Origin: an uncultured Gammaproteobacteria bacterium | Lineage (GTDB): Bacteria > Patescibacteriota > Microgenomatia > UBA10105 > UBA927 | Direction of reading: 5' to 3' | DNA length: 64,000 nucleotides | Assembly (NCBI GenBank): GCA_964515005.1 | Contig: CAZEVT010000003.1 | Location: 12,815 to 76,814, forward strand | In this document: positions 1-57,638 of the stretch, in pieces | How positions within the stretch are numbered: the stretch's first letter is position 1 | How the letters are laid out: each line of letters starts with the position of its first letter | Program-made: the position numbers and the translations under genes | Notes under the pieces: model-generated | Told to the model about the DNA's origin: nothing | Database searches by the model: none | What the model saw: the letters and a program-made list of their open reading frames with translations, nothing else

Positions 1-2
1 TG

Positions 3-1391
3 TTTTCCACAAGGCTGCCATCGGCAGTCATGGGAATCCTGGCGGTATTGGGGACATATGTACTGGTTCGCGAGCTTTTTGGGAGGAAAAAAGGAGAGGC
101 AGTACCGCTTTTGTCTTCATTTTTGCTTGCAATTTCTCCCTGGCACATTCAGTTTTCCCGAATTGCATTTGAGGCAAATACAGGGATCACGATAAATATT
201 TGGGCTGTGGCGGCATTTCTTGCAGGACTCCGGAGGCGGATATTTCTTCCTGTTTCCGCGGTACTTTTTGGGGTGGGGCTTTATGCATACCACAGTGAAC
301 GTGTCTTTTTGCCACTCATGGTTATTTTTTTGCTGGTTCTCTGTCGCAAGCAGTTGTTCACCTCTGAAAACAAAAAATATGTTGCGGCTGCGATTGTTGT
401 TGGCTTACTCGTGACTATTCCTCTTATTCCCGTATTTTTTAACAAGTCTGCGCTCCTTCGGGCACGAGGGACAAGTTCGTTTACTGATCAGAATAATCTG
501 CTTGCGCGCACCATTGCCAAAATTGAACAGGATCGGAGTGTTGGAGACAGAATGGGAGAGTTGTTGGATAACAGGCGTTTGGTTTGGGTCAAGACGGTGG
601 CCTCCGGATATCTATCTCACTTTTCATTGCAATGGTTGTTTTTAACCGGGGATAATCCGAGACACCACGCGCCTGACATGGGACTCATGTATCTTTGGGA
701 GCTTCCTTTTTTGCTCTACGGCATATACTGGGTCGCCAAGAATGTAAAGGGTCCAACACGCAGTGTTCTTTTTGGATGGTTTTTACTGGCTCCTATTGCG
801 GCCGCCCCCACAACCGGACTTCCCCATGCTATCCGAACGCTTGTTTTTCTGCCCACATTTCAGATATTCACGGCCCTTGGAATTGTTGCCATCGTGACAG
901 CCAGAAAAGGCGTATACAAAAACCTAGCCGCGTATTGCATTATATTCCTCTATGGACTATTTGTGGTGTTTAATTTCGCTTATTATATCGATAAATATTT
1001 TGTACATATGAATCCCGAGTTTTCTGAATATTGGCAATACGGATATGAGGATGCCGTAACGGAGACCGAAAAGATTAAGGGGAAGTATGAAAAAGTCGTC
1101 GTGTCAAATAAACTCGAGCAATCGTATATGTTTTTCCTTTTTTACACGAAATATGATCCCAATAAGTATCTGGCAGGTGGCGGCACGAAATCGGGGAGTT
1201 TTGAGGAGGCACAAAACAAGTTCGACACCTACGAGTTTCGAAAAATAATATGGTCAAATGAGCGGCGTGACGGAACCATTTTGTACGTCGGAGCGCCCGG
1301 CGACATGCCCCACGGAAACGTCAAAAATATTACATTTTTGAACGGGAAGCCGGCAATAGAAATGGCTGATCAGCCAAACGGAGCACCATGA
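3..1391 (+). CDS. Polytopic membrane protein, GT-C-like glycosyltransferase (5' truncated by window edge)
   Basis: The ORF runs open to position 3. Multiple TM helices are followed by a soluble C-terminal domain. It has an S-x-H-I-x-F-S-R loop motif resembling the GT-C domain of the 45246 ORF, and its C-terminal region resembles the 1388 and 6757 proteins. Confidence 0.4.
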   Translation, partial: FSTRLPSAVMGILAVLGTYVLVRELFGRKKGEAVPLLSSFLLAISPWHIQFSRIAFEANTGITINIWAVAAFLAGLRRRIFLPVSAVLFGVGLYAYHSERVFLPLMVIFLLVLCRKQLFTSENKKYVAAAIVVGLLVTIPLIPVFFNKSALLRARGTSSFTDQNNLLARTIAKIEQDRSVGDRMGELLDNRRLVWVKTVASGYLSHFSLQWLFLTGDNPRHHAPDMGLMYLWELPFLLYGIYWVAKNVKGPTRSVLFGWFLLAPIAAAPTTGLPHAIRTLVFLPTFQIFTALGIVAIVTARKGVYKNLAAYCIIFLYGLFVVFNFAYYIDKYFVHMNPEFSEYWQYGYEDAVTETEKIKGKYEKVVVSNKLEQSYMFFLFYTKYDPNKYLAGGGTKSGSFEEAQNKFDTYEFRKIIWSNERRDGTILYVGAPGDMPHGNVKNITFLNGKPAIEMADQPNGAP

Positions 1392-2908
1392 AAAAAATAT
1401 GGATTATTATTGCAATAGTTTTTTTATGGGGAGTGGGTCTTCGTGCTGTGGAGGTATTGAATGGCAACTATTTATTTGGATTTGATATCGGGCGTGACTT
1501 ACTCGTGGCGCGCGATATTGTTGAACATCATAAGTTAACCCTGATTGGTGCGGAAATTGGGTCGGGGAGCGCCGGAATTAACGGTATATTTCAGGGGCCG
1601 GGATATTACTATTTGCTTGCCGTTGTGTATTGGCTTTTCCGCGGTGATCCGTACGGAGTACTCCTTACGATGTTTGCGTTTGGTGTTGCCACGCTCATCG
1701 CCACGTACGTCACGGTGTCCCGCATGTTTGACCGGGTGGTGGCAACACTTGCACTCTTTCTTGTCGGCATATCGCCGCTTATTGTCTCACAGTCGCGGTT
1801 TATTTGGTCGCCGCACCCCGCCTCACTCCTGATTGTTTTTCTTTTGTTTCTTGCATACATGATTCCTACGCGGCCACGCTTATACGCTCCCGCTGCGGTA
1901 TTTCTTGCCGGACTGACGTATCACTTTGAGTTTGCCATGACGGTGCCTATTGTCATGGCTTTGTTTTTGTCGCTTCCCCTCATATTCCGTGTTAAAGATG
2001 TCAGGACATACCTGTACTCTGCCGCGAGCGTGGTGTTGGCGTTTAGTCCTCTGATCGGATTTGAAATGCGTCACGGATGGATGGCTGTGAAGTCAGCGCT
2101 CTCCTACAGCGCGCCTCAAGGGCCTGTGGGTAGTGACGTCTGGTTCCTCCGCATAACCGATCATATGGGTCCGTATATTGCCAACGCGGCAAACTCCTTT
2201 ATACAGGAACATGGACTATTACATGAAAAGTTTTTTGTTGCTCTATCGGGCGCGTTACTCGTTGCGCTTGTTATATTCGCATGGAAAACCAAGAACAAGA
2301 TGCATCGTATGTTTTTCCAATTCTCCTTGCTTCTTTTGGCTACCTCGTATGTCGTACTTCTTTTCCTTAACAATTTCATTTGGGACTACTATCTTATTCA
2401 CGCGCATTTTATCTATATCTATGTTTTTGCCTACTGGCTCGCGTTGACCTTCCGCACAATGAAAAAATCCGTTTTTTCAAAAGCTGCATTCGTGGTACTT
2501 TCGATCTTTCTTTTATCCATGGTCGTATCATCCATTTGGCGCATGAGAGTAAGCTACACCTACGATATTCGCGATTTGGGGGGCGTTGAAAAAATACAGG
2601 GGAAAAAGACGGCAATTGATTACGTCTACACGGACGCCAAGGGGCAACCATTTTCCGAATTTACCTTTATGGCTCCTATCTATACATACCCCTACGAGTA
2701 TCTATTTGAGACGTATGGGAGAAAGAAATACGGATATGCACCGGGGACCGAAAAGAAAGGACTTGTATATCTCATCATCGAGCCTGATGCCTCCAAACCC
2801 TGGACGTATAAAGGGTGGCTTGAAACCGTGATTGTTGATGGAGAAATACTTGATACGGTGACGCTGCCGACCGGGCACATTATACAAAAGCGTATGTTTC
2901 CGCTATGA
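1388..2908 (+). CDS. GT-C fold membrane glycosyltransferase, ArnT/PMT (GT39/83)-like; paralog of 6757..8232
   Basis: 506 aa with an N-terminal TM and the loop motif GFDIGRDLLVARDIVEHHKLTLIG, then about 10 TM helices and a soluble C-terminal domain ending KKYGYAPG...YLIIEPD. Clear paralogy to the 6757 ORF (GPEQGRDFLAIRDIAVNHKLTLIG ... KKYGYLPD...YVVIQRD). Confidence 0.55.
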   Translation: MKKIWIIIAIVFLWGVGLRAVEVLNGNYLFGFDIGRDLLVARDIVEHHKLTLIGAEIGSGSAGINGIFQGPGYYYLLAVVYWLFRGDPYGVLLTMFAFGVATLIATYVTVSRMFDRVVATLALFLVGISPLIVSQSRFIWSPHPASLLIVFLLFLAYMIPTRPRLYAPAAVFLAGLTYHFEFAMTVPIVMALFLSLPLIFRVKDVRTYLYSAASVVLAFSPLIGFEMRHGWMAVKSALSYSAPQGPVGSDVWFLRITDHMGPYIANAANSFIQEHGLLHEKFFVALSGALLVALVIFAWKTKNKMHRMFFQFSLLLLATSYVVLLFLNNFIWDYYLIHAHFIYIYVFAYWLALTFRTMKKSVFSKAAFVVLSIFLLSMVVSSIWRMRVSYTYDIRDLGGVEKIQGKKTAIDYVYTDAKGQPFSEFTFMAPIYTYPYEYLFETYGRKKYGYAPGTEKKGLVYLIIEPDASKPWTYKGWLETVIVDGEILDTVTLPTGHIIQKRMFPL

Positions 2909-4497
2909 AAAAGTTACTCCATAATCCATTGTTTTGGGTAATCGCGGCCTCGCTGCTGCCGATTTTGAGTCTCCTTAACTCGGGCATGCCGGTTGTGCAT
3001 GACGGGCAAGATCATGTCGCGCGGATTGCCAATTTTTATGCAGCCCTCAAAGACGGGATTCTCGTGCCGAGGTGGGCCGCAAACCTCAATTGGGGATACG
3101 GACATCCGGTTCTTATGTTTTTGTACCCGCTGCCCTCGTACCTAGCCAGCCTGTTTCATTTCATAGGATTTTCTCTGGTTGATAGTACAAAGCTAGTGTT
3201 TGGGCTGTCTTTTGTGGCAAGCGCCCTGACTATGTATCTATGGATGCGTGCGGCTTTCGACAAGAACGCGGCGGTTATTGCTGCAGTTTTGTATACATTA
3301 GCTCCCTACCGGTTTGTCGATCTATATGTTCGCGGGGCAATAGGAGAACACCTTGCGTTCGTTTTCCCTCCACTTATATTGTATTTTTTACAGAAGCGTT
3401 CGTTTATTGGCATGTCGGTATCTCTTGCCGCGCTCATTCTTTCCCATAATGCTGTTGCACTTATGTTTCTGCCCATTATCGGGCTCTACGCACTTTATAT
3501 TCTGATTTTTGAAGAGAAGAAAAAGTGGTTGTTTACTGTTCATTGTTTTTTGTCCTTTATTCTGGGTTTTTCCCTGTCTGCCTTTTTTTGGGTCCCTGCA
3601 CTTTTAGAAGGGAGGTTTACTCTCCGCGATATCGTGACTGCGGGTGAGGCACTCAGGCGGTTTGTCCCCTGGTCACAGTTTTTTTACTCTCCGTGGAACT
3701 ACGGGGGAACAGATACGCTGACGAAGTCACTGGGGATCCCGCAGTGGGTGGGGATCATTGGAGCGCTCTTCCTACTTACCAAAACGAAAGAGAAGAAACG
3801 GAAAGTGCTTATTGCGGGTTCGTTCGTGGCTCTGACCGTTTCAATCTTTATGATGACGGAATGGTCACGCCCGATTTGGGCATCAATCAGAATACTGCAA
3901 AATTTCCAGTTTCCTTGGCGGTTTCTTTCGGTGTCTGTGTTTATGGCAGCCTTTCTCGGAGGGATAGCTTTCGCCCAGACAAAAAAATTATTTCTTATTC
4001 TCTACTGCCTATGTATTATTTTCGTAACTTTTCTTATGTGGCATCCAAAAGGATACCAAATTCATGAAGACTCATTGTATTCCGGTGTGTACTCAAGTAC
4101 GACGGATACGGGAGAAAGCAGCCCTATCTGGTCGGTCAGGTTTATGGAGCATGCGCCGGCAGCTCATTTGGAGGTGATCGATGGAAAAGCAACGGTGAAG
4201 GAAACGAAGCGCACGACGACGATTCACGAATATGAGCTTGTCGTCGACAAACCCACGCTGATGCTTGAAAACACCGTGTATTTTCCTGGGTGGATGATAT
4301 ATCTGAATGGGGTTCCCACAGATATTCAGTTCCAAAACCCGAATTACCGCGGACTTATGACGTTTCGAGTGACCGAAGACACAAAATCAGTGCGCGTGGC
4401 GTTTGAGGACACTAAAGTCCGCAAAACCGCAAACGTGATAAGCTTAACATCACTTGTATTTCTGTTTGGACTATTCGTATGGCAAAAAAGAAGATAA
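2905..4497 (+). CDS. Polytopic membrane protein, PTPS-related/YfhO-like putative glycosyltransferase; paralog of 8229..9803
   Basis: 530 aa. N-terminal TM then HDGQDHVARI...PRWAANLNWGYGHP, many TM helices, and a C-terminal extracytoplasmic domain with YFPGW and a terminal TM anchor. Shares these motifs with the 8229 ORF (HDGEYHIIRI...PRWAPDMNSGYGIP...YFPGW). The family name is tentative. Confidence 0.45.
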   Translation: MKKLLHNPLFWVIAASLLPILSLLNSGMPVVHDGQDHVARIANFYAALKDGILVPRWAANLNWGYGHPVLMFLYPLPSYLASLFHFIGFSLVDSTKLVFGLSFVASALTMYLWMRAAFDKNAAVIAAVLYTLAPYRFVDLYVRGAIGEHLAFVFPPLILYFLQKRSFIGMSVSLAALILSHNAVALMFLPIIGLYALYILIFEEKKKWLFTVHCFLSFILGFSLSAFFWVPALLEGRFTLRDIVTAGEALRRFVPWSQFFYSPWNYGGTDTLTKSLGIPQWVGIIGALFLLTKTKEKKRKVLIAGSFVALTVSIFMMTEWSRPIWASIRILQNFQFPWRFLSVSVFMAAFLGGIAFAQTKKLFLILYCLCIIFVTFLMWHPKGYQIHEDSLYSGVYSSTTDTGESSPIWSVRFMEHAPAAHLEVIDGKATVKETKRTTTIHEYELVVDKPTLMLENTVYFPGWMIYLNGVPTDIQFQNPNYRGLMTFRVTEDTKSVRVAFEDTKVRKTANVISLTSLVFLFGLFVWQKRR

Positions 4498-5693: not shown

Positions 5694-6787
5694 GATTATT
5701 TATCATAACGCTCGCGGCGCTTGGTATATTCTCCTACGGTTTTACGGACCCCAATCTGACACTATCCACGAATCCGTTGTTCCTGCGTTTACACGAGCCT
5801 CTTTTCAACATGGTGTACCACCAACGGCCAACTGCGACGATCCTTTTTCTCTCGCTCCTTTTGATTTTGTTTGTCTGTTATCTATGGTTTCTAAAAAACA
5901 GAGAGAAAATTTTTCCTTCTTGGAACGTAACGCTTAAGATTTTGTTGGTTTCCTCAGTGATGTTTGTTTTTTCATACCCGGCACTTACGTACGATCTTTT
6001 TAACTATATGGCAACGGCAAAAGTTGCGTATCACTATGGAGAAAATCCATACGTGGTAATGCCGGTGGAGATTCCTAATGAACCAAATCTAGCCTTCACG
6101 AGAGCCGCGAATAAATTCGCGCTCTATGGGCCGGTATGGCTTTTGCTTAGCGCGATTCCGCACTTCGTGGGAGCCGGCAATGTCTGGTTGACGATTATCG
6201 CGTTTAAATTTATGAACGCCGTCGTATATCTGGGATTTAGTTATTTCATCTGGCGCATGACGAAAAATCTGACAAACGTAATATTTTTCGCGCTCAATCC
6301 ACTGGTGCTTATCGAAGTCCTTATGAACGGCCATAACGATATCTACATGATGGTACTTGCACTTTTGGGAATTTGGTTTTGGCAAAAGGGAAAGAAAATA
6401 AATGGCATCATAACGTTAGTTGCTTCTTGGTTTATAAAGGGCGCAACGCTACCTCTCATTTTTGTGATGAACAAATCGCTGGTTTGGTCCTACTGGATTC
6501 TAGCAGCCGTATTTTTTATTCTCGCGCCTTTACGCGAAGAGTTGTATCCATGGTATGCGGTTTGGCTTATTATGACAGCTTCATTACTGCCTATGAAGAC
6601 CCATCGGTTTCTCGCGGCTTTTACGCTTGTTCTGTCTTTTGCACTGGAACTGCGGCATCTTCCGTATATGTGGATGGGGTATTATGAAGGACCAGGGCCG
6701 ATGTTAAGGCTCGCACTTACTGTTGTACCGGTAGGTGTGTTTCTCGTGGGCCACGTATGGATAAAAAAACTAAGATTTTTCTCATAG
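5684..6787 (+). CDS. Polytopic membrane protein, possible GT-C (GT87/DUF2029-like) glycosyltransferase
   Basis: 367 aa with about 10 predicted TM helices and conserved loop residues (NGHND). No soluble domain. The call is made by architecture and context only. Confidence 0.3.
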   Translation: MAVGLFIITLAALGIFSYGFTDPNLTLSTNPLFLRLHEPLFNMVYHQRPTATILFLSLLLILFVCYLWFLKNREKIFPSWNVTLKILLVSSVMFVFSYPALTYDLFNYMATAKVAYHYGENPYVVMPVEIPNEPNLAFTRAANKFALYGPVWLLLSAIPHFVGAGNVWLTIIAFKFMNAVVYLGFSYFIWRMTKNLTNVIFFALNPLVLIEVLMNGHNDIYMMVLALLGIWFWQKGKKINGIITLVASWFIKGATLPLIFVMNKSLVWSYWILAAVFFILAPLREELYPWYAVWLIMTASLLPMKTHRFLAAFTLVLSFALELRHLPYMWMGYYEGPGPMLRLALTVVPVGVFLVGHVWIKKLRFFS

Positions 6788-8232
6788 GACTTGCTATTAT
6801 TGCATTCGTTTTGCGATGGTACCTGATGCCGGATCAATTGTTTTTTGGCCCGGAGCAGGGAAGGGATTTCTTGGCCATCCGCGATATCGCGGTCAACCAT
6901 AAATTGACGCTCATCGGCTCCAAAACAGACATTGACGGAGTTTTTCACGGCCCGATTTTTTACTATCTTGCATCCGTCCCGTTTGCGCTTTCCCAGGGAA
7001 ACCCTCTTGGCGTTTCTGCGTTTTTTATATTCATTCAGAGTATTACTGTATTTTTGGCGTACCTGCTTGCATACGAATTAACCAAAAGTCGCCGTGCGGG
7101 ACTCATTGCCGCCACCCTTTTTGCTGTGAGTTATTTGTTAATCGTGTATGCCCGCTGGCTTTCCAATCCTCCGCTCTCCATTCCGCTCTCTTTATTATTT
7201 ATCCTTTCCTTACTTCGGTTTGTGCGCGGTCGTCCGTGGTATCTGGTCGCGGCCGCATTCGTATATGGAATGATCGGACAGGCAGAGTTTATTAATTATT
7301 TACTCTTTGCGGTTATCGGGGTAATTACCTGCTTCATGTACCGGAAAACGGTGGTGCGAACCAGGCCGCTCATTCTCGCCGCGGCCGCAGCAGTGGGTGT
7401 ACTGACATCACTTATCACCTATGTGGCGTTTGATCTTCGGCACGAATTTCTTGTATCCAATGCAGTTGCGGGCCTGCTTATGGGTAAAACCGGATACCGG
7501 TTGGATTTTTTTGGTTCGATAGCGGGAGCATTCAAAATGTTGTGGGAGCAAGCATCAGCAATTCTCGGGTTTTCCGGCCGCACCGCCGGATTTATGTTGA
7601 TTGTTGGGATTGCGTTTGTCTTAATCCGGGCGACGAAAAAGAATCCGGATCACCGCATCCTCGCCGTATGGATATTCGCGCCGCCCGTCGTATTTTCACT
7701 TCTTCGGCATGCAATGCTCGAGCAGTTGTACGCGGGGGTTATCGCCGGACTCCTTATTGGCCTTTCCCTCCTTATTGAATCCATCATGCGGTGGAATGCA
7801 AGGCTCGGGCGAGTACTACTACTTCTGTCCATTGTCATGAGTTTGAGCGTTGTGTACAGGAATCTTCCTATCAATAGGAACGTTTTTTTTCAGGGACCGC
7901 AACCGGCCGTGAGGTATTCGGATCAACTTGCCGCTATCGATTGGGTATACGAACGTGCACAAGGAAGACCCTTTTCTTTTCAGGCATACACAATTCCGTA
8001 CTTTTGGCAGGATGCATGGACATATCTTCTTGGGTATTACGGCAATAAGAAATACGGGTATCTGCCGGATGACCAAGGACGAAAGCTGATGTACGTAGTC
8101 ATCCAAAGGGATACACTTGACCCCGGATTCCAGAAAAAATGGTATGAGGAAACGGTGTCAAAATGGGGGACACGAACGAGTCAGGAAACTATCGGTGAAT
8201 ATCGCGTAGAAGAACTCGCCGTAGGCCTATGA
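6757..8232 (+). CDS. GT-C fold membrane glycosyltransferase, ArnT/PMT-like; paralog of 1388..2908
   Basis: 491 aa with the same N-terminal loop motif and C-terminal KKYGY...D domain as the 1388 ORF. Confidence 0.55.
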   Translation: MDKKTKIFLIGLAIIAFVLRWYLMPDQLFFGPEQGRDFLAIRDIAVNHKLTLIGSKTDIDGVFHGPIFYYLASVPFALSQGNPLGVSAFFIFIQSITVFLAYLLAYELTKSRRAGLIAATLFAVSYLLIVYARWLSNPPLSIPLSLLFILSLLRFVRGRPWYLVAAAFVYGMIGQAEFINYLLFAVIGVITCFMYRKTVVRTRPLILAAAAAVGVLTSLITYVAFDLRHEFLVSNAVAGLLMGKTGYRLDFFGSIAGAFKMLWEQASAILGFSGRTAGFMLIVGIAFVLIRATKKNPDHRILAVWIFAPPVVFSLLRHAMLEQLYAGVIAGLLIGLSLLIESIMRWNARLGRVLLLLSIVMSLSVVYRNLPINRNVFFQGPQPAVRYSDQLAAIDWVYERAQGRPFSFQAYTIPYFWQDAWTYLLGYYGNKKYGYLPDDQGRKLMYVVIQRDTLDPGFQKKWYEETVSKWGTRTSQETIGEYRVEELAVGL

Positions 8233-9803: not shown

Positions 9804-10840
9804 ACATTGCTATTGACACGTCACCTCTTCATACCGAGCACGGTAGGCGTGGCGTGGGGACCTACGCTAAGAATCTAATCGCTTCATTGAAACAGTACGC
9901 AAGTGAACATTCGTATACTTTATTTACCCGAAAACAAAATATACCCATTAATGCGGATATAGTCCATTATCCGTACTTTGATCCGTTTTTTTTGACGCTC
10001 CCCATCATTAAGCCAAAACCCACGGTCGTGACCGTCCATGATCTTACGCCGCTTGTATTTCCGGGCAAATTTCCCGCCGGGCTTCGCGGGGGGGTGAAAT
10101 GGCAAATTCAAAAACAGTCACTATTGGGAGCCAAAAGAATATTGACGGATTCGGAATATTCCAAACGCGACATCGAGAGAATAATCGGTATCTCCCCATC
10201 CCGCATAGACGCTATTCACCTGGCGCCGGATCCACAATTTATTCGGGTTACAGATGTCAAACTTTTGACGGCAGTCAAGAAAAAATTTGAACTACCTGAC
10301 CGCTTTGTGTTGTATGTTGGGGACGTCAACTGGAACAAAAACGTTCAAGGGCTTCTCAAGGCGTTCGCGCAGTTGGCGCCAAAGGCGAAGCTGGTATTGG
10401 TTGGTGCGGCTTTTACAAATCCGGGGCTTGCCGAAACCAAAGACATACAAAGAGTTATACAATCGCTGAATGTAGCCCAATCAGTAATACTTACTGGCTT
10501 TGTTTCGGGTCGGGAACTTTCGGCTCTTTATTCACTTGCGACCTGTCTTGTTCTCCCTTCTTTTTACGAGGGATTCGGATTCCCGATGCTCGAGGCTATG
10601 GCGTGCGGTTGTCCGGTGGTTACGGCGACTACCTCATCGCTTCGGGAAATAGCCGGTCCTGCCATTGGGGTTCAGCCGGAACGCATAGAGTCGATCGCAG
10701 AGGGGATGTCACACATATTTACTTTGACGCCGAGTGAGCGCGAAAAACTGGTAGGCGAGGGAGATGCATGGGTGAGGAGGTTCACCTGGAAGAAGACTGC
10801 ACGGCAAACGGTCGCCTCATATGAAAGGGCCATGCAGTGA
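9800..10840 (+). CDS. GT4 family glycosyltransferase (GT-B)
   Basis: C-terminal EGFGFPMLEAMACGCPVV motif (the E-x7-E region) and an N-terminal MNIAIDTS...GVGTY start, both typical of GT4. Confidence 0.85.
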   Translation: MNIAIDTSPLHTEHGRRGVGTYAKNLIASLKQYASEHSYTLFTRKQNIPINADIVHYPYFDPFFLTLPIIKPKPTVVTVHDLTPLVFPGKFPAGLRGGVKWQIQKQSLLGAKRILTDSEYSKRDIERIIGISPSRIDAIHLAPDPQFIRVTDVKLLTAVKKKFELPDRFVLYVGDVNWNKNVQGLLKAFAQLAPKAKLVLVGAAFTNPGLAETKDIQRVIQSLNVAQSVILTGFVSGRELSALYSLATCLVLPSFYEGFGFPMLEAMACGCPVVTATTSSLREIAGPAIGVQPERIESIAEGMSHIFTLTPSEREKLVGEGDAWVRRFTWKKTARQTVASYERAMQ

Positions 10841-19177: not shown

Positions 19178-19178
19178 C

Positions 19179-22882: not shown

Positions 22883-22903
22883 TAGTTTGTGTATAATGAC
22901 GAT

Positions 22904-23872: not shown

Positions 23873-23891
23873 TTAGAAGAAGGATATTTAT

Positions 23892-26681: not shown

Positions 26682-26690
26682 CTGACCAGT

Positions 26691-48242: not shown

Positions 48243-48244
48243 CT

Positions 48245-50874: not shown

Positions 50875-51733
50875 ACTTTCGATCATCATCGTCAACTTTA
50901 ATACCAAAGACATCACTCGCGCATGTCTGGATTCCATACGGAAATGGTCGGAAGGGCGCCCGTGGGAAATCATCATGGTCGACAACGGCTCGACTGACGG
51001 CAGCGTCGAGATGCTCGAGAAGTACCCGGGAATTACCCTCATTTTAAACAAAAAAAATTTGGGATTTGCGAAGGCGAATAACAAAGGGATAAAGGTTGCC
51101 AAGGGAAAATATATCCTCCTTTTGAATTCCGATACAGAGATCCATCAGGATTCCGTCCAAACCATGCTGCGATTTATGGATGGGCATCTGAAGGCAGGCG
51201 CGGCTACGTGCAAGCTGGAACTCATGGACGGCACAATGGATCCTGCGTGCCACCGGGGATTTCCTACTCCCTGGGCATCATTGAGCTATCTTCTCGGACT
51301 TGAGAAACTGTTCCCAAAATCCCGGCTATTTGCCGGCTATCACCTTGGGTACAAAAATATGGATATTCCGCACCAGGTGGATTGCGTAAGCGGTGCCTTT
51401 TTTATGGCCCGCCGCGAAGCGATTGACGCGGTAGGAGTACTTGACGAAGATTATTTTTTCTATGCCGAAGATATCGACTGGGCATACCGTTTCAAGAAAA
51501 AAGGGTGGGAGATCTGGTTTAATCCGGAAGCCACGGTTCTGCATAAGAAGAAACAAAGCGGGAGGGCAAATGTACTACGATCTCGACAAATCAAAACCGA
51601 GATGTACTTCCATACGTACAACTGGCTCTTCTTTAAAAAACACTATGCGAAAAAATATGGTCCGTTGGTCTCGATCCCCGTGAGCATTTTTTATACGATC
51701 CGCTTGTTTTTGCTCAAAAACTTTTCTCTATGA
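50858..51733 (+). CDS. GT2 family glycosyltransferase
   Basis: LSIIIVNFNT...IIMVDNGSTDGS...LNSDTE. The likely start is ATG 50858. Confidence 0.85.
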   Translation: MNTATELSIIIVNFNTKDITRACLDSIRKWSEGRPWEIIMVDNGSTDGSVEMLEKYPGITLILNKKNLGFAKANNKGIKVAKGKYILLLNSDTEIHQDSVQTMLRFMDGHLKAGAATCKLELMDGTMDPACHRGFPTPWASLSYLLGLEKLFPKSRLFAGYHLGYKNMDIPHQVDCVSGAFFMARREAIDAVGVLDEDYFFYAEDIDWAYRFKKKGWEIWFNPEATVLHKKKQSGRANVLRSRQIKTEMYFHTYNWLFFKKHYAKKYGPLVSIPVSIFYTIRLFLLKNFSL

Positions 51734-52260
51734 AGATTGGCATTGATGCGCGCCTTATCGACGAAACCGGAGTTGGGAGATATATCCGGAACCTTATAGT
51801 GGAACTGGGAAAGATTGATAAGACAAATTCATACGTTGTCTTTTTACGGAAACGTTCCTACGGCGATTTCGTTGCGCCGAATGCGCGCTGGCAAAAACGG
51901 CTTGCGGACGTGCCATGGCATAGCGTCGCCGAACAATTATTTATGCCGGCGATATTTAATGGGGGGAAATTGGATCTCCTCCATGTGCCGTACTTCAACG
52001 TCCCGCTTTTGTACTTTGGGAAATTTATTGTGACGATCCATGATTTAACCGTTCTTCACGTTCATACCGGTAAGGCAAGTACCCTCCCATATTTTTTCTA
52101 TCAAATCCGGCGGTTGGGATATCATCTGTCACTACTAAAAGCGCTTTCCTGGGCAGAAAAGATTATTGCGGTGTCGGGGGCAACGAAGAAAGAAATTACC
52201 GATCATTTTGATGTGCTGCCCGCGGATATTACGGTGATTTACGAAGGGGGATCGTTATGA
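51730..52260 (+). CDS. GT4 glycosyltransferase, N-terminal half (split gene)
   Basis: 176 aa with MKIGIDAR...TIHDLT...VIYEGGSL, then a stop. A G5 tract lies at 52246-52250 just before the stop. Confidence 0.6.
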   Translation: MKIGIDARLIDETGVGRYIRNLIVELGKIDKTNSYVVFLRKRSYGDFVAPNARWQKRLADVPWHSVAEQLFMPAIFNGGKLDLLHVPYFNVPLLYFGKFIVTIHDLTVLHVHTGKASTLPYFFYQIRRLGYHLSLLKALSWAEKIIAVSGATKKEITDHFDVLPADITVIYEGGSL

Positions 52261-52775
52261 AGACGCCGTATTTTCTCTATGTTGGAAATGCATATCCTCA
52301 TAAAAACCTGGAAATTCTTATAGACGCATTTGCTGCGCTCGGCGGCGATACCACGCTTGTCCTGGTGGGAAAAGATGATTATTTTTATAAACGGCTGAAA
52401 CAAAGTGAACGAGTGAAGACGCTGGGAAACAGAATTGTTTTTAAAACGAGTGTATCGGATAGAGAACTGGGAAGTTTGTACCGCGATGCGCAAGCATTTG
52501 TATTTCCGTCGCTCATGGAAGGCTTCGGATTGCCTGCCATCGAAGCACTTGCCCATGGTTGTCCGGTCATTTGTTCGGATATACCCGTCTTTCATGAGAT
52601 TCTTGGTGAGGCAGCAACATACTTCGATCCGAACGACGTCGACCGCCTTACAAAAATTCTCGCGGTTGCCCTAGAAAAAAGACCCAGAGTCGACGGGAGT
52701 ATCGTAAAGAAGTATTCCTGGCAAAAAATGGCTAAGGAGACATTATCTGTATATGAAAATCGGTCTCGTCTATGA
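52257..52775 (+). CDS. GT4 glycosyltransferase, C-terminal half (split gene)
   Basis: 172 aa with PYFLYVGN...EGFGLPAIEALAHGCPVI. Starts 4 bp inside the preceding half's stop. Confidence 0.65.
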   Translation: MKTPYFLYVGNAYPHKNLEILIDAFAALGGDTTLVLVGKDDYFYKRLKQSERVKTLGNRIVFKTSVSDRELGSLYRDAQAFVFPSLMEGFGLPAIEALAHGCPVICSDIPVFHEILGEAATYFDPNDVDRLTKILAVALEKRPRVDGSIVKKYSWQKMAKETLSVYENRSRL

Positions 52776-53871
52776 CCGCGTAAATAAATGGGGCGGGGCT
52801 GAGCGGGTTCTTCTTGCGCTCCATGAGATTTGGCCGGAGGCGCCGCTTTATACTGCGGTCTACGACGAGAAACGTGCATCATGGGCAAAGGTATTTGAGG
52901 TTCATCCTTCGTTCCTGCAGCATATTCCCTTCGCCAAAAATAATCACGAGTTTTATCCATGGTTTACTCCCATGGCCTTTGAAACGTTTCGCTTTGACGG
53001 ATATGATGCAGTGCTTTCAGTGACGTCTGCGGAGGCTAAAAATATTATTACCAAGCCCGGTACCGTGCATATATGCTACTCCCTGACCCCGACGCGATAT
53101 CTTTGGAGCGGAGAGAAAGAATATGTAAAATATTCAGATCAAATTTCATCACACATGTTTCGTCTGTGGAGGGCGACGCTCAAACGATGGGACCAGGTTG
53201 CGGCTTCGCGACCCGATTATTATCTTGCCATTTCCAACCATGTTGCGGGTCGCATAAGGAAATACTACCAGCGGGAAACAGAAAAAGTTATCTATCCGCC
53301 GGTTGATCTTCAGATGTTTCGGCCAGAGGCCGATCAGCCTTTGGCTGATACGCCGAATGGTAAAGGCGACTATTTTCTTTGTGTTGCAAGGCTCGTGCCG
53401 TATAAACGTGTGGACCTTGTCATAGATGCGTTTAACAAATTAGGCTGGCTGCTCAAAATTATCGGCAGGGGTAGAAGCGAGTCATCGCTTCGGCAAAAGG
53501 CAAAAAAGAATATTGAATTTGTCGGTGGTGATTTGACAGATGAAGAAGTCCGTGCCTATTATCAAAAGGCCCGTGCTTTTGTGTTTGGGGGCGTCGAAGA
53601 CTTTGGTATTGTATCGCTTGAGGCTCAAGCATGCGGCAAGCCGGTGATTTGCCCGCGGGACTCCGGAATGGCGGAAACCGTGATGGAGGGCAAAACCGGA
53701 GAATTGTTCAGCGAGCAGTCAGTCGGTTCGCTTACCGCCGCGTTGCGAAAGTTTGATAAAGGGTGGTATGATAGCGACTTCTGCCGCACAAACGCAGAAA
53801 AATTTTCTATGGACCGATTTAAAAAAGAAATGAAGGAGACTGTGATGAGGTTGGCGACACATACACTATGA
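52753..53871 (+). CDS. GT4 family glycosyltransferase
   Basis: EDFGIVSLEAQACGKPVI motif, with an N-terminal MKIGLVYD...WGGAE start. Confidence 0.8.
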   Translation: MKIGLVYDRVNKWGGAERVLLALHEIWPEAPLYTAVYDEKRASWAKVFEVHPSFLQHIPFAKNNHEFYPWFTPMAFETFRFDGYDAVLSVTSAEAKNIITKPGTVHICYSLTPTRYLWSGEKEYVKYSDQISSHMFRLWRATLKRWDQVAASRPDYYLAISNHVAGRIRKYYQRETEKVIYPPVDLQMFRPEADQPLADTPNGKGDYFLCVARLVPYKRVDLVIDAFNKLGWLLKIIGRGRSESSLRQKAKKNIEFVGGDLTDEEVRAYYQKARAFVFGGVEDFGIVSLEAQACGKPVICPRDSGMAETVMEGKTGELFSEQSVGSLTAALRKFDKGWYDSDFCRTNAEKFSMDRFKKEMKETVMRLATHTL

Positions 53872-54950
53872 AGGCAATAATATTCGCAGGCGGAGTAGGC
53901 ACAAGGCTGTGGCCGCTTTCCCGAAAAAAATCCCCCAAGCAATTTGAAAAAATTGTCGGCAACAAGTCGACCCTCCAGTTGGCTGCGCAGCGTCTTCTCC
54001 CTGATTTTTCCTGGAAAGACATCTATGTTTCGACCGGCAAGCCGTACGTTGAACTGATTCAAAAACAGCTCCCCGAGGTGCCTGCCGATCAGGTTATTGG
54101 TGAACCCGAGATGCGGGATGTTGGGCCTGCCGTCGGCCTTATAACGTCGCTTCTTGTGAAAAAGTCGCCCCTTGAGCCAATGGTCATCCTTTGGAGCGAT
54201 CATCTGGTCAAAAAAGACGCGCTGTTTCGAAAAGTTCTCATGGCCGCGGGGGATATAGTGAAAAAAGAACCCGACCGCATTATTTTTGTTGCCCAAAAGC
54301 CGCGATTTGCTAGTGAAAACCTGGGATGGATTGATTATGGAAAAGAAATGCAGCGGGAAAACGGCGTTCCGTTTCACGCATTTGTCGACTTTCAATACCG
54401 CCCGGACGGGGCCACTGCCAAACGCTACTTGGAAAGCGGCCATCATGCGTGGAATCTCGGGTACTTCGTCACGACCCCGCAATTTTTGTGGAAACAATAC
54501 GAGCGGTTTGCCCCGAATGTTCACCAAGGACTATCCCGGATTGCCGATGCCTGGGGCACTACGCGATTTGAAGAAGTTCTTGCCGAGGTATACCCGACGC
54601 TTGAGAAAATCAGCTTTGACAACGCGATTCTGGAAAAACTCGACCCGGGGGGTGCGCTGGTTGTTTCTGAAAACATCGGATGGAGTGATATTGGCGCGTG
54701 GGAAGCGCTCAAGGAGGCGCTTCAGGAGGCGGAGGACAAAAATGTCACGCAGGGAAAAGTGATTCTAACCGATACGTCCGATTCGCTTGTTTATAACTAC
54801 ACGGATCAGACCATCGCAACGATTGACGTTGATGATATGCTCATCGTTACGACCGATGACGTGGTACTCGTCTGCAAGAAATCATCGGTACCCAAAATAA
54901 AAAAACTGGTCGAAAGCTTGAAAGGGACAGAGCACGAGCATCTGACATAA
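53868..54950 (+). CDS. manC: Mannose-1-phosphate guanylyltransferase (GDP-mannose pyrophosphorylase)
   Basis: AIIFAGGVGTRLWPLSR...PKQF N-terminal signature, 360 aa. Confidence 0.8.
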   Translation: MKAIIFAGGVGTRLWPLSRKKSPKQFEKIVGNKSTLQLAAQRLLPDFSWKDIYVSTGKPYVELIQKQLPEVPADQVIGEPEMRDVGPAVGLITSLLVKKSPLEPMVILWSDHLVKKDALFRKVLMAAGDIVKKEPDRIIFVAQKPRFASENLGWIDYGKEMQRENGVPFHAFVDFQYRPDGATAKRYLESGHHAWNLGYFVTTPQFLWKQYERFAPNVHQGLSRIADAWGTTRFEEVLAEVYPTLEKISFDNAILEKLDPGGALVVSENIGWSDIGAWEALKEALQEAEDKNVTQGKVILTDTSDSLVYNYTDQTIATIDVDDMLIVTTDDVVLVCKKSSVPKIKKLVESLKGTEHEHLT

Positions 54951-54957
54951 GCCTTCT

Positions 54958-55596: not shown

Positions 55597-55599
55597 CGG

Positions 55600-55628: not shown

Positions 55629-55634
55629 AATACA

Positions 55635-57638
55635 ATGCCCGAGGAGCTCAAAAAAATAGAACTGGAGACGACGCCTCGGCCAAAGGCCGACCAGCCTCTG
55701 GCTGGTGTACCCGCTTTGAACTCCATGAACAAGAAACCATTTCCCTGGAAATTTATTTTCATTCCTTTAGGCGTCATCCTTGTTTTCCTCGTTGTGATCG
55801 GACTCATGTTGCTTCCGCTTCGCGGCGTTATGGCCAAAGCCCAAAACGTTGCGCAAACCGGTCGTATCCTTGGGGATGCCGTGAAAAGCCAGGACCTGGT
55901 GAAGGCAAAAGAAGGGCTTGCAGCGACAAGGAAAAGTCTTGAGGAGCTTCGGAGTGAGTACGGCAAAATAAAACCGCTTATGGTCGTTCCTCTTCTCGGC
56001 GCGTATATAAAAGATGGCGATCACGCAATCAAAGCAGGGTTTGCCGGACTTGATGCGGGGGACAAGGCCATCGAAGCACTCGAGCCCAATGCGGACATTC
56101 TGGGACTCAAAGGCAAAAGCACATTTGTCTCGGGGACCGCCGATGACCGGATCCAGACAGCAGTCAAAACCATGAACGCGCTCGTGCCAAAAATAAATGA
56201 AATGGCCGGAAGCATCGATACCTTACGACGCGAAATCGACGCGATAGATCCCGCGCGCTACCCCGACCACATCGGCAAGACGTCCATTCGGCCGCGCCTC
56301 GTGGGAATCAAAGAAGTCATTGAAAATGCGGCGAATTTGTTTGTGAATGCACAGCCTTTACTCGTGAATCTACCCAAACTTCTTGGCGAGCCCGATGAAA
56401 AGCGCTACCTCGTGCTTTTCCAAAACGACAAGGAACTTCGGTCAACAGGCGGATTCATCACCGCCTACGCACAGTTCCGGTTTGTACGGGGCAAAGCAAT
56501 TTTGGAAAAATCAGATGATATCTACGCGCTTGATGCCGCCAAGACCAAGAAGTTTGAAGCACCCCGGGAAATTTCCACGTTCCACAAAGGTGTCTATGAG
56601 CTCCACATCCGCGACTCAAATCTTTCGCCCGATTTCAAGACGTCCATGCTGAAGTTTGAAGAAATGTACAACACCACATCTGGTAAAGAAAAAATTGACG
56701 GTATTTGGGCGATGGACACGCATGTACTGGTCGAGGCATTGAAGATTTTAGGCCCCATGAACGTATACGGCCGCGTGTTTAGTGCAGAAATTGACAAGCG
56801 GTGCGATTGCCCCAAGGCAGTCTACGAACTTGAGGATTATTCGACGCGCCCGGTCAACTATGTGAAGACCGCGCGCAAAGATATTATCGGTGTCCTTCTT
56901 CAGACTATTTTGCAGCAGGCCTTGGGCGTTTCCCCTTCCAAGTACTGGGGACCGCTTTTCCAGATGCTCATTACGGAAATTAACGAAAAGCATGTCCTTG
57001 CATACTTCCATGATCCTGCCGCCCAGAAGGCCGCGGAAAGCTTCAATATGGCAGGTCGCATTATGGCGGCAACCGACACGGCGACGCTTTTGAAGTATGA
57101 AGAGGGCAACGGCTGGGACTATCTCCACGTCAACCACAGCAATATGAGCGGCGCTAAAGCCAATATGTTTGTATCGGAGAAAATTACCAAAGACACGACC
57201 GTAAATACCGACGGAACGGTGATCACTAAATTAACCGTCGATTATAAAAATCCCTACAAAGGAAGCGACTGCGGACTCGAGTCCGGAGGGCTCTGCCTTA
57301 ACGCGCCGCTTCGCAATTGGGTGCGGGTGTTTGCGCCAGCAGGAAGCAAGCTCGTTGAGAGTAAAGGCACTCAGTCGCCCAAAGACAGCAAAGCGACGCC
57401 CATGGAGACCTATGACTCACTGGGAAAAACTGTGTTTGAAGGGTTCCTCATCGTCAACCCATTGGGGACAGCGAAGCTTGAGCTGACGTATACGTCACCG
57501 GTTTCCCAGGTAGACGGGAAATACAAGCTCCTTATCCAGCGCCAGCCGGGATCTGACGATCAGGAGTTTATTCTCAAGCTCGGCGGTAAAGAAAGAAAGA
57601 AATTTATCCTCAAAACTGATACGGAGGTAGTATTGTAG
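55635..57638 (+). CDS. Membrane-anchored extracytoplasmic protein, possibly DUF4012-like
   Basis: N-terminal TM anchor, a 600-aa soluble domain, and an LVLFQNDKELRSTGGFI motif. The family assignment is tentative. Confidence 0.4.
   Translation: MPEELKKIELETTPRPKADQPLAGVPALNSMNKKPFPWKFIFIPLGVILVFLVVIGLMLLPLRGVMAKAQNVAQTGRILGDAVKSQDLVKAKEGLAATRKSLEELRSEYGKIKPLMVVPLLGAYIKDGDHAIKAGFAGLDAGDKAIEALEPNADILGLKGKSTFVSGTADDRIQTAVKTMNALVPKINEMAGSIDTLRREIDAIDPARYPDHIGKTSIRPRLVGIKEVIENAANLFVNAQPLLVNLPKLLGEPDEKRYLVLFQNDKELRSTGGFITAYAQFRFVRGKAILEKSDDIYALDAAKTKKFEAPREISTFHKGVYELHIRDSNLSPDFKTSMLKFEEMYNTTSGKEKIDGIWAMDTHVLVEALKILGPMNVYGRVFSAEIDKRCDCPKAVYELEDYSTRPVNYVKTARKDIIGVLLQTILQQALGVSPSKYWGPLFQMLITEINEKHVLAYFHDPAAQKAAESFNMAGRIMAATDTATLLKYEEGNGWDYLHVNHSNMSGAKANMFVSEKITKDTTVNTDGTVITKLTVDYKNPYKGSDCGLESGGLCLNAPLRNWVRVFAPAGSKLVESKGTQSPKDSKATPMETYDSLGKTVFEGFLIVNPLGTAKLELTYTSPVSQVDGKYKLLIQRQPGSDDQEFILKLGGKERKKFILKTDTEVVL

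Follow-up and report, generated by a model that had tools for sequence, protein, structure and literature searches.

A conserved super-locus rich in GT-C-type glycosyltransferases in a CPR bacterium, possibly devoted to a cell-envelope glycopolymer

We analysed a window of 64,000 nucleotides from a Microgenomates-type member of the CPR/Patescibacteria, a host with a tiny genome of about 1 Mb. Most of it is a single conserved super-locus, and in our judgement there is an even chance that this locus builds, in two stages, a heavily modified glycopolymer of complex structure for the cell envelope, which would be either a lipoglycan or a secondary cell-wall polysaccharide. If this reading is true, a bacterium with such a small genome devotes a run of adjoining genes of at least 57 kb to a surface sugar polymer, including about eleven membrane glycosyltransferases of the kind employed in mycobacterial cell-wall synthesis. 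We found no published description of such a locus in the literature.

Layout and conservation of the locus

A first-pass annotation had described a ~57 kb glycan-assembly locus with nearly all genes co-directional and many overlapping, and our analysis agrees. From the 52 ORFs in positions 1-57638 (Table 1; genes are named by their first position), 48 lie on the + strand, 33 of the 51 junctions overlap (16 with the 4-nt ATGA type) and just three neighbouring pairs are more than 60 nt apart. The left window edge cuts the locus, which extends beyond it, so its size is a minimum; the first ORF has a full length of 548 aa and is complete in the relative L082, with one more paralog upstream. At the other end, the proposed adjacency to the division/cell-wall (dcw) cluster is also seen in relatives and holds only in a loose sense, since a 3.6 kb stretch with RecO, small ORFs and a class II aaRS separates the locus from the first dcw genes. 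The PBP of this flank carries an STFK motif, and its gene exceeds the window end.

Relatives keep the gene order, which was seen in several MAGs and about 30 metagenomic contigs at identities as low as 35-40% and recurs across dozens of independent contigs; the genes are not scattered among relatives, as they might have been had the proposal of one locus been wrong. Three blocks are conserved: a 5' block (in about 30 contigs), an AftD-like core with UXS and GalE, and a 3' block, which adjoins RecO/aaRS in relatives too. In GCA_040960765.1 the core is contiguous with the 3' block, with the order unchanged, and in L107 the 5' block continues into the start of the core. Besides, L085 carries a PEP-utilizer gene and extra proteins of 528 aa and 415 aa, L004 lacks 44408 and 45246, and the content of a low-GC block at 20-30 kb varies among relatives. 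The slot of 6757 is occupied by a 38089-like paralog in some of them.

Table 1. Features of the window, with supporting matches and counterparts in relatives
Positions	Strand	Feature	Evidence	Relatives
1..1391	+	GT-C, PMT_2 type, cut at window edge	PMT_2 27.7 bits vs cutoff 26.1	
1388..2908	+	GT-C, PMT_2-like, 8 TM	PMT_2 21 bits, under cutoff	
2905..4497	+	GT-C, PTPS_related/YfhO type	PF10131 63 bits	
4479..5693	+	GT2, one TM segment, extracytoplasmic DUF5667 tail		Orthologs at syntenic loci, 41-77% identity
5684..6787	+	8-TM protein, probable GT87-like GT-C	TIGR03459 MptA E 6e-8	
6757..8232	+	GT-C, PMT_2 type, 10 TM	PMT_2 26.9 bits vs 26.1	
8229..9803	+	GT-C, PTPS_related/YfhO type	PF10131 35.5 bits; YfhO across C-terminus	160 related metagenomic stretches
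9800..10840	+	GT4		
10837..11523	+	GT2 resembling polyprenyl-phosphate-hexose synthases		65-79% identity
11533..12792	+	Wzx/MOP-type flippase, 10 TM	Polysacc_synt 34.2 bits vs 28.2	
12779..13570	+	GT2 resembling PpgS/PgfS/ArnC polyprenyl-phosphate-sugar synthases		48-77% identity
13574..14686	+	GT4		
14708..15832	+	DegT/DnrJ/EryC1 sugar aminotransferase	381 bits	
15829..16662	+	GT2 with C-terminal TM segment		
16616..17590	+	GDP-L-fucose synthase-like SDR	NF047922 E 3.6e-141, 470 bits vs cutoff 500	
17587..20946	+	FkbM methyltransferase 17587; class I methyltransferases 18299, 20200; GT2 19179		
20981..22036	-	Sugar O-methyltransferase, NanM type	TIGR04371 E 3e-45, 155 bits vs cutoff 44	
22100..22882	+	260-aa ORF, no assigned function	No Pfam/NCBIfam match of note	
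22889..24716	+	Two SDR epimerase/dehydratase-family enzymes (22889, 23892)		
24719..27554	-	Trio in low-GC variable block: Glyco_trans_1_2 protein 24719, class I methyltransferase 25692, FkbM methyltransferase 26691		
27633..28751	+	WecB-like UDP-GlcNAc 2-epimerase	Epimerase_2 147 bits; TIGR00236 E 1e-44, below cutoff	
28723..29790	+	GT2		L085 ortholog, 59% identical
29787..31700	+	AftD-like GT-C without Pfam match (family A3)	hhalign vs AftD-like family A1 100%, E 4e-42	L085 ortholog, 69% identity
31687..32019	+	Small membrane ORF, 110 aa, conserved		106-110 aa gene in L084, L169, L170
31998..33612	+	Two class I methyltransferases (31998, 32599)		
33602..36571	+	AftD-like GT-C	Membrane domain, extracytoplasmic domains, C-terminal TM segment	
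36581..38092	+	AftD/YfhO-like GT-C without Pfam match (family A4)	hhalign vs A1 99.9%, E 1.4e-33	Family of 1900 cluster representatives
38089..39936	+	GT-C fold protein, 12 TM, family without Pfam model		
39954..40895	+	UDP-glucuronate decarboxylase (UDP-xylose synthase)	Human UXS1 structures 4gll/2b69, E 3e-103	74-77% identity
40892..41089	+	65-aa membrane ORF, conserved, between two SDR genes		65-73 aa gene there in L085, L087, L170
41094..42071	+	GalE-family UDP-hexose/pentose 4-epimerase	8wxk E 5.5e-106	76-79% identity
42209..42742	+	GT4 N-terminal domain alone, kept as separate gene		L085 178 aa, 73% identity; L170 173 aa
42739..45277	+	GT4 42739, then hexapeptide acetyltransferase 43842, GT2 44408		Order identical in L170
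45246..48242	+	998-aa, 18-TM protein; N half Wzy_C/O-antigen-ligase-like, C half unassigned, with 'GDDFTW' motif		L170 ortholog, 1033 aa
48101..49687	+	GT-C, PMT/PMT_2 type	PMT 32.4 bits vs 22.7; PMT_2 28.5 vs 26.1	L002, L004 orthologs, 42-43% identity
49684..51733	+	GT4 49684 and GT2 50822		
51730..52775	+	GT4 split by frame change (N half 51730-52260, C half 52257-52775)		One 379-aa ORF in L002
52753..53871	+	GT4		
53868..54950	+	ManC-like sugar-1-phosphate nucleotidyltransferase	NTP_transferase and ManC beta-helix	
54958..55596	+	Small phosphoglycosyltransferase (Bac_transf), priming enzyme	195 bits	50-70% identity
55635..57638	+	DUF4012 protein; N-terminal TM segment, large extracytoplasmic part	Pfam 79 bits	Always after priming enzyme (L002-L004, L012, L030, L062)
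57656..64000	+	Flank outside locus: RecO, class II aaRS, small ORFs, MraZ, RsmH, FtsL-like ORF, PBP		

Large membrane proteins

The locus encodes twelve large polytopic membrane proteins, each predicted to have 7 to 18 TM segments except the first ORF, which is truncated and has fewer. Ten of the twelve are supported as GT-C enzymes by Pfam, by predicted fold or by profile-profile comparison, with three of the PMT_2 type, one PMT, two PTPS_related/YfhO and three AftD-like. Regarding the earlier count of at least eleven GT-C-like proteins, an eleventh (5684) is probable, and membership cannot be shown for 45246. HMM searches, which could have revealed transporters or unrelated families, upheld the claim, and five membrane proteins score above the gathering thresholds of the Pfam models PMT_2, PMT or PTPS_related.

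Four membrane proteins had no Pfam match; three of them belong to families homologous to the AftD-like family (hhalign E 4e-42, 1e-33), and a few members of the 36581 family match GT-C_AftD, PTPS_related or YfhO. The GT-C families were interlinked by hhalign at ≥90% probability, with the exception of 5684, while the Wzx flippase, taken as negative control, gave no profile link to them. For instance, the 1388 family profile matched the 6757 family at 100%, and 2905, which is 30% identical to 8229, matched the 36581 family at 97%. In 29787, G38-D39 is invariant after TM1. Several of these families have had no annotation to date, and sequence identity to AftD is only 9-15%.

Two of 14 members of the 5684 family match Pfam GT87 at 5e-4, and D104, within an 'SYDIFNY' motif, is invariant; by sequence, this protein is probably a GT87-like GT-C. 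The predicted fold of 38089 gave STT3B as top structural match, with PglB and AglB also high; AftD, ALG12 and AftA scored almost equally, so only the GT-C fold is held in common with STT3/PglB/AglB. The WWDYG-type motif of these oligosaccharyltransferases was absent from every ORF searched. Finally, 45246 gave 20-22 bits for Wzy_C, below the Pfam cutoff of 31.7, weakly suggesting an O-antigen-ligase-like protein; its C half matched the AftD-like family at only 48% in hhalign.

Other enzymes and a candidate two-stage pathway

Pfam/NCBIfam searches bore out the proposed eight GT2 (4479, 10837, 12779, 15829, 19179, 28723, 44408 and 50822) and six intact GT4 plus halves: five are two-domain GT4 (9800, 13574, 42739, 49684 and 52753), the sixth GT4/GT-B is the minus-strand Glyco_trans_1_2 protein 24719, and the halves are 42209, 51730 and 52257. 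A flippase (Wzx 11533), a priming enzyme (Bac_transf 54958), an aminotransferase (DegT 14708) and an acetyltransferase (hexapeptide 43842) had also been rightly recognized, as had eight methyltransferases (17587, 18299, 20200, 31998 and 32599, with 20981, 25692 and 26691 on the minus strand). Nucleotide-sugar enzymes are present as proposed, although they number seven instead of six (16616, 22889, 23892, 27633, 39954, 41094 and 53868). GT2 10837 matched AglJ (7e-33), Dol-P-hexose transferase (2e-18), ArnC (6e-18) and PpgS (3e-15), with all the polyprenyl-phosphate-sugar synthase assignments, for 12779 as well, below the NCBIfam equivalog cutoffs. Since two GT2 resemble such synthases, the lipid-linked logic suggested earlier is strengthened.

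The genes most likely serve a two-stage lipid-linked pathway working like mycobacterial arabinogalactan/LAM assembly. That all genes take part in one pathway is inferred, as are the sequence of its reactions, its donors, its product and its acceptor. Judging from protein families, 54958 would prime polyprenyl phosphate on the cytoplasmic face, and GT4 and GT2 enzymes would extend the chain. The locus could supply GDP-Man (53868), GDP-6-deoxyhexose (16616, 22889), UDP-Xyl (39954), 4-epimers (41094), ManNAc (27633) and an acetamido sugar (14708 with 43842), and the eight methyltransferases would O-methylate the glycan. UDP-glucose dehydrogenase, required upstream of UXS, is absent from the window. 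The intermediate would then be flipped across the membrane by Wzx and, on the outer face, polymerised or ligated by the Wzy_C-like 45246, after which ten or eleven GT-C enzymes would attach more residues or build branches. As donors these enzymes would use polyprenyl-phosphate monosaccharides made by the ArnC/PpgS/AglJ-like 10837 and 12779, and GT2 with C-terminal TM segments are perhaps additional makers.

We counted the priming enzyme, the flippase, the synthase-like GT2 and the nucleotide-sugar enzymes (UXS, GalE, Fcl, ManC and WecB-like) in favor of a lipid-linked pathway, and co-direction, overlaps and block-wise gene order in favor of one unit. Against the glycopolymer, PMT_2-type GT-C may also glycosylate proteins or lipid A, the low-GC block differs among relatives, and co-location with co-direction is no proof of one pathway. 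Pfam found no LCP domain in the window, and no ligase to peptidoglycan was identified.

Alternative readings and known systems

One could argue that surface proteins (S-layer, type IV pilins, adhesins) are O-glycosylated instead, both by PMT-like GT-C with polyprenyl-phosphate sugars and en bloc, with the Wzy_C-domain protein as a PglL/PilO-type O-oligosaccharyltransferase; we consider this rather unlikely. Four proteins match PMT/PMT_2, the protein O-mannosyltransferase families, Wzy_C (a domain of PglL/PilO-type O-OTases) is weakly present in 45246, and 38089, given its structural matches, might move a lipid-linked glycan to protein. TfpW, a GT-C arabinosyltransferase, glycosylates Pseudomonas pilins. 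Harvey 2018, cited in PMC11623550, reportedly deals with pilin glycosylation as a phage defence. Glycosylation of pilins is suspected, yet untested, in Saccharibacteria (PMC11623550). On the other hand, the locus holds no PMT-type targets or pilin genes, nor any candidate gene for an acceptor protein, the OST motif is missing, and five of the enzymes (three AftD-like, two YfhO/PTPS-like) are similar to glycosyltransferases acting on polysaccharides or teichoic acids. PMT_2 also includes ArnT-like lipid and glycan transferases, and with 25 or more transferases the locus has more than protein-glycosylation systems are known to require.

It is more doubtful still that the locus is a glycosylation island, where a streamlined genome has brought several independent pathways next to each other, for example an AftD-like pentose polymer, a Wzx/Wzy-type polysaccharide and a three-component system for decoration by GT2 and GT-C. 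The separate conservation of the three blocks, the genes gained or lost between them (as in L085 and L004) and the variable low-GC block would fit such an island, whereas the single priming enzyme and single Wzx in the whole 57 kb, the continuously overlapping, co-directional junctions and the contiguity of blocks in GCA_040960765.1 and L107 speak against it. We give almost no credence to an ordinary O-antigen or capsule cluster in which the large membrane proteins would belong to transporter or unrelated families. This could draw on the four proteins without Pfam match and on one NCBIfam match to MmpA 'trehalose lipid delivery', but that match spans only residues 253-391, with 40.7 bits vs a cutoff of 210, and we know of no ordinary O-antigen cluster with GT-C other than a ligase or polymerase. 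Our results support that the membrane proteins are not transporters; folds and profiles place them in GT-C, and the transporter or unrelated-family identity was rejected.

The two-stage glycopolymer pathway has its closest likeness in mycobacterial and corynebacterial arabinogalactan and LM/LAM, where WecA priming and cytoplasmic GTs are followed by the periplasmic GT-C AftA-D, EmbA-C, MptA/B and PimE, which use decaprenyl-phosphate sugars from Ppm1/PpgS-type GT2. Shared are the PpgS/Ppm-type-like GT2, the priming phosphoglycosyltransferase and the inside/outside logic. In contrast, here the host is a CPR bacterium and thus from another phylum, the genes are gathered in one co-directional locus and not scattered, there are a Wzx flippase and a Wzy_C protein, the window has no UbiA/DprE1/DprE2 arabinose-donor genes, and we predict a heavily O-methylated glycan with amino sugars, Man, Fuc and Xyl (perhaps L-Ara). 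The Gram-positive three-component glycosylation of teichoic acids (CsbB/GtrB GT2, small flippase, YfhO/GtcA GT-C) is similar in that PTPS_related/YfhO-type GT-C (2905, 8229) adjoin GT2 here, and the conserved 65-aa and 110-aa membrane ORFs could serve as flippase partners; the locus differs by at least ten GT-C rather than one, inside a full priming/Wzx pathway, and by the lack of a Pfam match to GtrA.

The Arn pathway for lipid A Ara4N has several counterparts in the locus, namely PMT_2/ArnT-like GT-C, an ArnC-like GT2, a DegT aminotransferase and the SDR decarboxylase 39954, which is related to the C-terminal domain of ArnA (E 1e-22), but 39954 is far nearer to UDP-xylose synthase and neither formyltransferase nor deformylase is present. 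The CPR envelope has been argued to be Gram-positive-like (PMC6744442), and lipid A is not thought to be present in these bacteria. Finally, Wzx/Wzy O-antigen and capsule loci also combine Bac_transf priming, GT4/GT2, nucleotide-sugar genes, Wzx and a Wzy_C-like protein with a low-GC central block that varies, whereas here there is no Wzz or tyrosine-kinase co-polymerase, DUF4012 takes that position, and about 11 GT-C and the eight methyltransferases are added, in a locus three to four times what we take to be the usual size.

Layout and gene content of the locus

Between positions 1 and 57638 of the window we counted 52 ORFs, 48 of them on the plus strand. The genes are tightly packed: 33 of the 51 junctions overlap, 16 of these being of the ATGA type, with just three gaps of more than 60 nt between genes. 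Scans for tRNAs and Rfam families gave no matches, and a promoter/terminator scan of the 19-34 kb region did no better than on shuffled sequence and is uninformative on operon boundaries. Regarding tandem repeats, the scan gave nothing relevant; one short repeat lies within a GT4 gene (see table).

When each ORF was scanned against Pfam and NCBIfam, the gene inventory of the first-pass annotation was reproduced. The scans returned its eight GT2 and its eight methyltransferases, the eighth being the minus-strand NanM-type sugar O-methyltransferase 20981 (E 3e-45; genes are named by their start coordinate), together with the Wzx/MOP flippase 11533, the small Bac_transf priming enzyme 54958, the DegT aminotransferase 14708 and the hexapeptide-type acetyltransferase 43842. 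The reported six intact GT4 and additional halves correspond to five two-domain GT4, one Glyco_trans_1_2 protein and three GT4 half-genes. Nucleotide-sugar enzymes are present as described, but they number seven instead of six. At least eleven large polytopic membrane proteins had been noted, and a hydropathy scan gives twelve, not counting the flippase.

The locus continues beyond the left edge of the window: the first ORF encodes a 548-aa PMT_2 protein in full, and L082, another metagenomic version of this DNA, has a further paralog in front of it. On the downstream side come RecO, a class II aaRS, small ORFs, MraZ, RsmH, an FtsL-like ORF and a PBP with an STFK motif. The dcw genes are thus near the locus but not next to it, as had been stated, since RecO, the aaRS and small ORFs come first.

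Coordinates of selected features in the window and in related stretches (L002, L085, L169 and L170)
Feature	Position	Match, size or context
UDP-xylose synthase (UXS)	39954	3e-103 vs human UXS1
GalE-family 4-epimerase	41094	5.5e-106
GDP-fucose-synthase-like enzyme		3.6e-141
Further sugar-supply enzymes: ManC; WecB-like epimerase
GT2 with DUF5667 as extracytoplasmic tail	4479-5693
Wzy_C-like protein	45246-48242	998 aa, 18 TM; conserved C half with 'GDDFTW' motif
Wzy_C-like protein in L170	16893-19994
Place of the 33602 ortholog in L169	14944-18098	two ORFs (734 and 320 aa), no Pfam match
Split GT4 gene	51730-52775	N half and C half, frame change at ATGA junction
Ortholog of the split GT4 gene in L002	3338-4477	one 379-aa ORF
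Lone GT4 N-terminal domain gene	42209-42742	173-178 aa over the three stretches
Lone GT4 N-terminal domain gene in L085	22047-22583	73% identity
Lone GT4 N-terminal domain gene in L170	13889-14410
Small membrane ORF, 65 aa	40892-41089	between UXS and GalE
Small membrane ORF, 110 aa	31687-32019	after GT-C 29787
Tandem repeat CAGGGGA/CAGGGTA	14092-14123	4.6 copies, within GT4 gene 13574-14686
Class II aaRS	58214-59833	539 aa

Some of the smaller genes deserve a comment. The split GT4 gene could stem from a frameshift or a sequencing error, or the enzyme could genuinely consist of two pieces. The lone GT4 N-terminal domain, which directly precedes a full GT4 in the window and in L170, is no pseudogene and may act as a regulatory or partner subunit. 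The 65-aa and 110-aa membrane ORFs have no family match and hold fixed positions in several relatives; both could encode small flippase or partner subunits.

The GT-C membrane proteins

Pfam gathering scores were passed directly by 1-1391 and 6757 (PMT_2, 27.7 and 26.9 bits against 26.1), 2905 and 8229 (PTPS_related, 63 and 35.5 against 26.4) and 48101 (PMT, 32.4 against 22.7 bits), while 1388, 29787, 33602, 36581, 38089, 5684 and 45246 did not reach a GT-C score in this way. We take PTPS_related and YfhO to be members of the GT-C clan. Protein 1388 falls just under the PMT_2 cutoff, and its family profile matches that of the 6757 family with 100% probability in hhalign. No Pfam match was obtained on 29787, 33602, 36581 or 38089; in hhalign, nevertheless, the 29787 family (E 4e-42) and the 36581 family (E 1.4e-33) prove homologous to that of 33602. 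In a local all-against-all profile comparison, the PMT_2-type, PTPS/YfhO-type, AftD-type and 38089 families were interlinked at 90% or more, whereas the flippase 11533, our negative control, was linked to none of them.

The GT-C fold, defined here as an N-terminal multi-TM module, a long first outer loop and a variable C-terminal module, was recognised on predicted folds. The other proteins were tied to these by hhalign at 90% or more, with the exception of 5684 and 45246, for which profile comparison gave no tie to the other GT-C families. Candidates for the acidic residue that GT-C enzymes conserve in their first extracytoplasmic loop are an invariant Asp shortly after TM1 in the 33602 (D43), 29787 (D39), 36581 (D10) and 5684 (D104) families. 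D139 and D259 are invariant in 38089, in loops whose side of the membrane is uncertain. The tool-made family alignment of 38089 gave 30% in hhalign against the AftD-like family, and a second alignment, made with members from syntenic loci, reached 94-96%; the matter was decided by the fold search.

Protein 5684 matches TIGR03459 with an E value of 6e-8 (32 bits; cutoff 439), and two of its 14 orthologs match PF09594 at 5e-4, while a PDB profile search with it found nothing. By these weak matches, it is probably a GT87-like GT-C. As for 45246, Wzy_C scores 20-22 bits in its N half, under the cutoff of 31.7, and its C half reaches only 48% hhalign probability against the AftD-like family. This protein may be a ligase/polymerase-GT-C fusion. 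PDB sequence searches with 33602, 38089 and the DUF4012 protein as single queries, and with the 45246 alignment, returned nothing. In total there are ten supported GT-C, one probable and one ligase/polymerase-like protein; of the eleven GT-C initially claimed, ten are borne out by Pfam, hhalign and predicted folds, and the eleventh, 5684, is only probable. These folds and profiles rule out transporters. Identity among all internal paralogs is at most 37%, which makes them old paralogs and rules out recent tandem duplication.

The AftD family model PF11847 (GT-C_AftD) does not match 33602 itself, but it matches ten of its 38 homologs (best E 4e-12) and two of 30 members of the 36581 family. The architecture is AftD-like: it combines a GT-C membrane domain with large extracytoplasmic domains and has a TM segment at the C terminus. 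Using the predicted structure of 33602, the best three Foldseek matches were all AftD, with a query-normalised TM-score of 0.53, and a PDB profile search matched the AftD C-terminal region at E 0.07. AftD transfers arabinofuranose from decaprenyl-phospho-arabinose, and the genes of this donor pathway are absent within the window: we found no UbiA or DprE-type (arabinose-donor) domains among its ORFs, and we therefore call these proteins AftD-like and not AftD. In L169 (GCA_040960765.1), the two ORFs at the place of the 33602 ortholog suggest a split gene.

Gene order in relatives

Scattering of these genes in relatives would have argued against a common system. Synteny is, on the contrary, strong. 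The order of the 5' block (one to four PMT_2 genes, then 1388-2905-4479-5684, either 6757 or a 38089-like paralog, and 8229-GT4-GT2-Wzx-GT2-GT4) is found again in some 30 long contigs from metagenomes, with identity falling as low as 35-40%. The AftD-like core (GT2-29787-small ORF-methyltransferases-33602-36581-38089-UXS-65-aa ORF-GalE) was found in a 254-kb contig, in a 1.09-Mb contig and in GCA_040960765.1. In the latter the core is followed, as in the window, by the GT4 N-half, GT4, acetyltransferase, GT2 and a Wzy_C-type protein of about 1000 aa, then by a 433-aa ORF where the window has the PMT-type 48101, and by a GT4. Finally, the 3' end order ManC-priming enzyme-DUF4012-RecO-aaRS is kept in six related stretches (L002-L004, L030, L012 and L062).

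A variable block, put at 15-27 kb or at 20-30 kb, with a GC content of 0.37-0.40 against 0.43-0.51 elsewhere in the locus, contains all four minus-strand genes, and its methyltransferase, SDR and other modification gene content differs among relatives. This block has the look of a variable region of the serotype kind. A horizontal origin of the whole locus is ruled out by the even GC outside the 20-30 kb block and the vertically conserved order.

The unannotated GT-C families have named homologs in MAGs of the Microgenomates group, Gottesmanbacteria, Levybacteria, Amesbacteria and Parcubacteria, and the best relatives of the aaRS are Patescibacteria MAGs, at 62% identity or less. The aaRS aligns over its full length (~530 residues) with those of L002-L004 and some non-CPR genomes, whereas for most CPR homologs only ~330 residues fall in the main aligned segment; its N-terminal region appears variable. 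The MAGs L002 (CAZNVI010000002.1), L003 (CAZEJU010000013.1) and L004 (CAZJRC010000009.1) are titled 'uncultured Gammaproteobacteria' and show the CPR-type order of the window's 3' end, from GT-C to priming enzyme, DUF4012, RecO and aaRS. Their label looks doubtful.

Proposed pathway and its significance

The best-supported model has two stages. The priming enzyme, with GT4 and GT2 enzymes, would build a polyprenyl-PP-linked oligosaccharide in the cytoplasm, to be modified by amination, acetylation and O-methylation. Wzx would then flip it across the membrane, where the Wzy_C protein may polymerise or ligate the glycan and the GT-C enzymes would elaborate it on the outer face with polyprenyl-phosphate sugars. 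Polyprenyl-phosphate-sugar synthases make donors for GT-C enzymes, and this use of donors is predicted from the highly conserved GT2 10837 and 12779, on either side of the flippase, which resemble such synthases (AglJ, 7e-33; Dol-P-hexose transferase; ArnC; PpgS), all below equivalog cutoffs. UXS and GalE keep 74-79% identity across genomes in which the AftD-like protein keeps only 38-52%, which suggests that a pentose would be central to the product. The family and fold identities and the gene order are observed; how the steps follow one another, which donors are used, what is made and what it is attached to we infer. Neither an LCP ligase nor an acceptor gene occurs in the window. Tentatively, we propose that Microgenomates-type CPR bacteria make a lineage-defining, O-methylated envelope heteropolysaccharide or lipoglycan with pentose (xylose/arabinose), built outside the membrane by a GT-C battery that includes at least four families with no Pfam model on the window proteins.

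Functionally, the locus comes closest to mycobacterial arabinogalactan/LAM assembly, and it also has elements of Gram-positive three-component glycosylation and of Wzx/Wzy pathways. Of the latter, the priming enzyme (Bac_transf, 195 bits) and the flippase (Polysacc_synt, 34.2 bits against 28.2) are clear; Wzy_C is sub-threshold on 45246, no Wzz domain was found in the window, and DUF4012 holds the place beside the priming enzyme. The DUF4012 protein always comes next after that enzyme and may have a co-polymerase or ligase-like role; the family is enriched in CPR and Gram-positive bacteria and occurs in exopolysaccharide loci (PMC6744442). In comparison with the Arn (lipid A Ara4N) pathway, the decarboxylase here is UXS-like, and this pathway is ruled out, as no formyltransferase or deformylase domains occur among the window ORFs. 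Both a transporter set and an ordinary O-antigen cluster are refuted.

One could argue that the PMT-type families, the Wzy_C domain and the OST-like predicted fold of 38089 belong to a protein-glycosylation system. We consider this unlikely, given the AftD/YfhO-type enzymes and the absence from the window of an acceptor gene. Moreover, a regular-expression scan of all ORFs found no WWDYG motif, the hallmark looked for in STT3/PglB/AglB, which rules out an STT3-type OST. Since conservation holds block by block, with varying content in between, the locus might also be an island of several independent pathways; its single priming enzyme, single Wzx and contiguous junctions make this improbable.

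We found no description of this locus in the literature. Mannosyltransferases have been described, scattered, in Saccharibacteria and Peregrinibacteria (PMC6031116, PMC4736985), and glycosylation in Saccharibacteria is unexplored (PMC11623550). The enzyme classes are familiar; new are the lineage, the packaging, the number of GT-C and the four families that are missed or scarcely picked up by domain libraries; one of these families has about 1900 cluster representatives. The CPR/Patescibacteria envelope is chemically near-uncharacterised and is thought to underlie life attached to other microbes, and to our knowledge there are no cultured Microgenomates. If the proposal is true, it would be a non-actinobacterial parallel to the mycobacterial arabinogalactan/LAM strategy, in a locus taking up ~5% or more of a ~1 Mb genome and possibly serving host attachment or phage resistance. 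Relatives' contigs measure ~1.0-1.1 Mb, and the retention of at least 57 kb of packed, syntenic glycan genes in so small a genome implies strong selection. The locus offers a concrete, testable way into CPR envelope chemistry, with a parts list (priming enzyme, Wzx, lipid-sugar synthases, about eleven GT-C and predicted sugars) and structural models available for expression and assay.

The AftD-like architecture, known from mycobacteria, is widespread in CPR. DUF5667, the tail of GT2 4479, is also found in several AftD-like homologs (e.g. P0021 and P0027), and its presence in both ties this domain to the glycan system.
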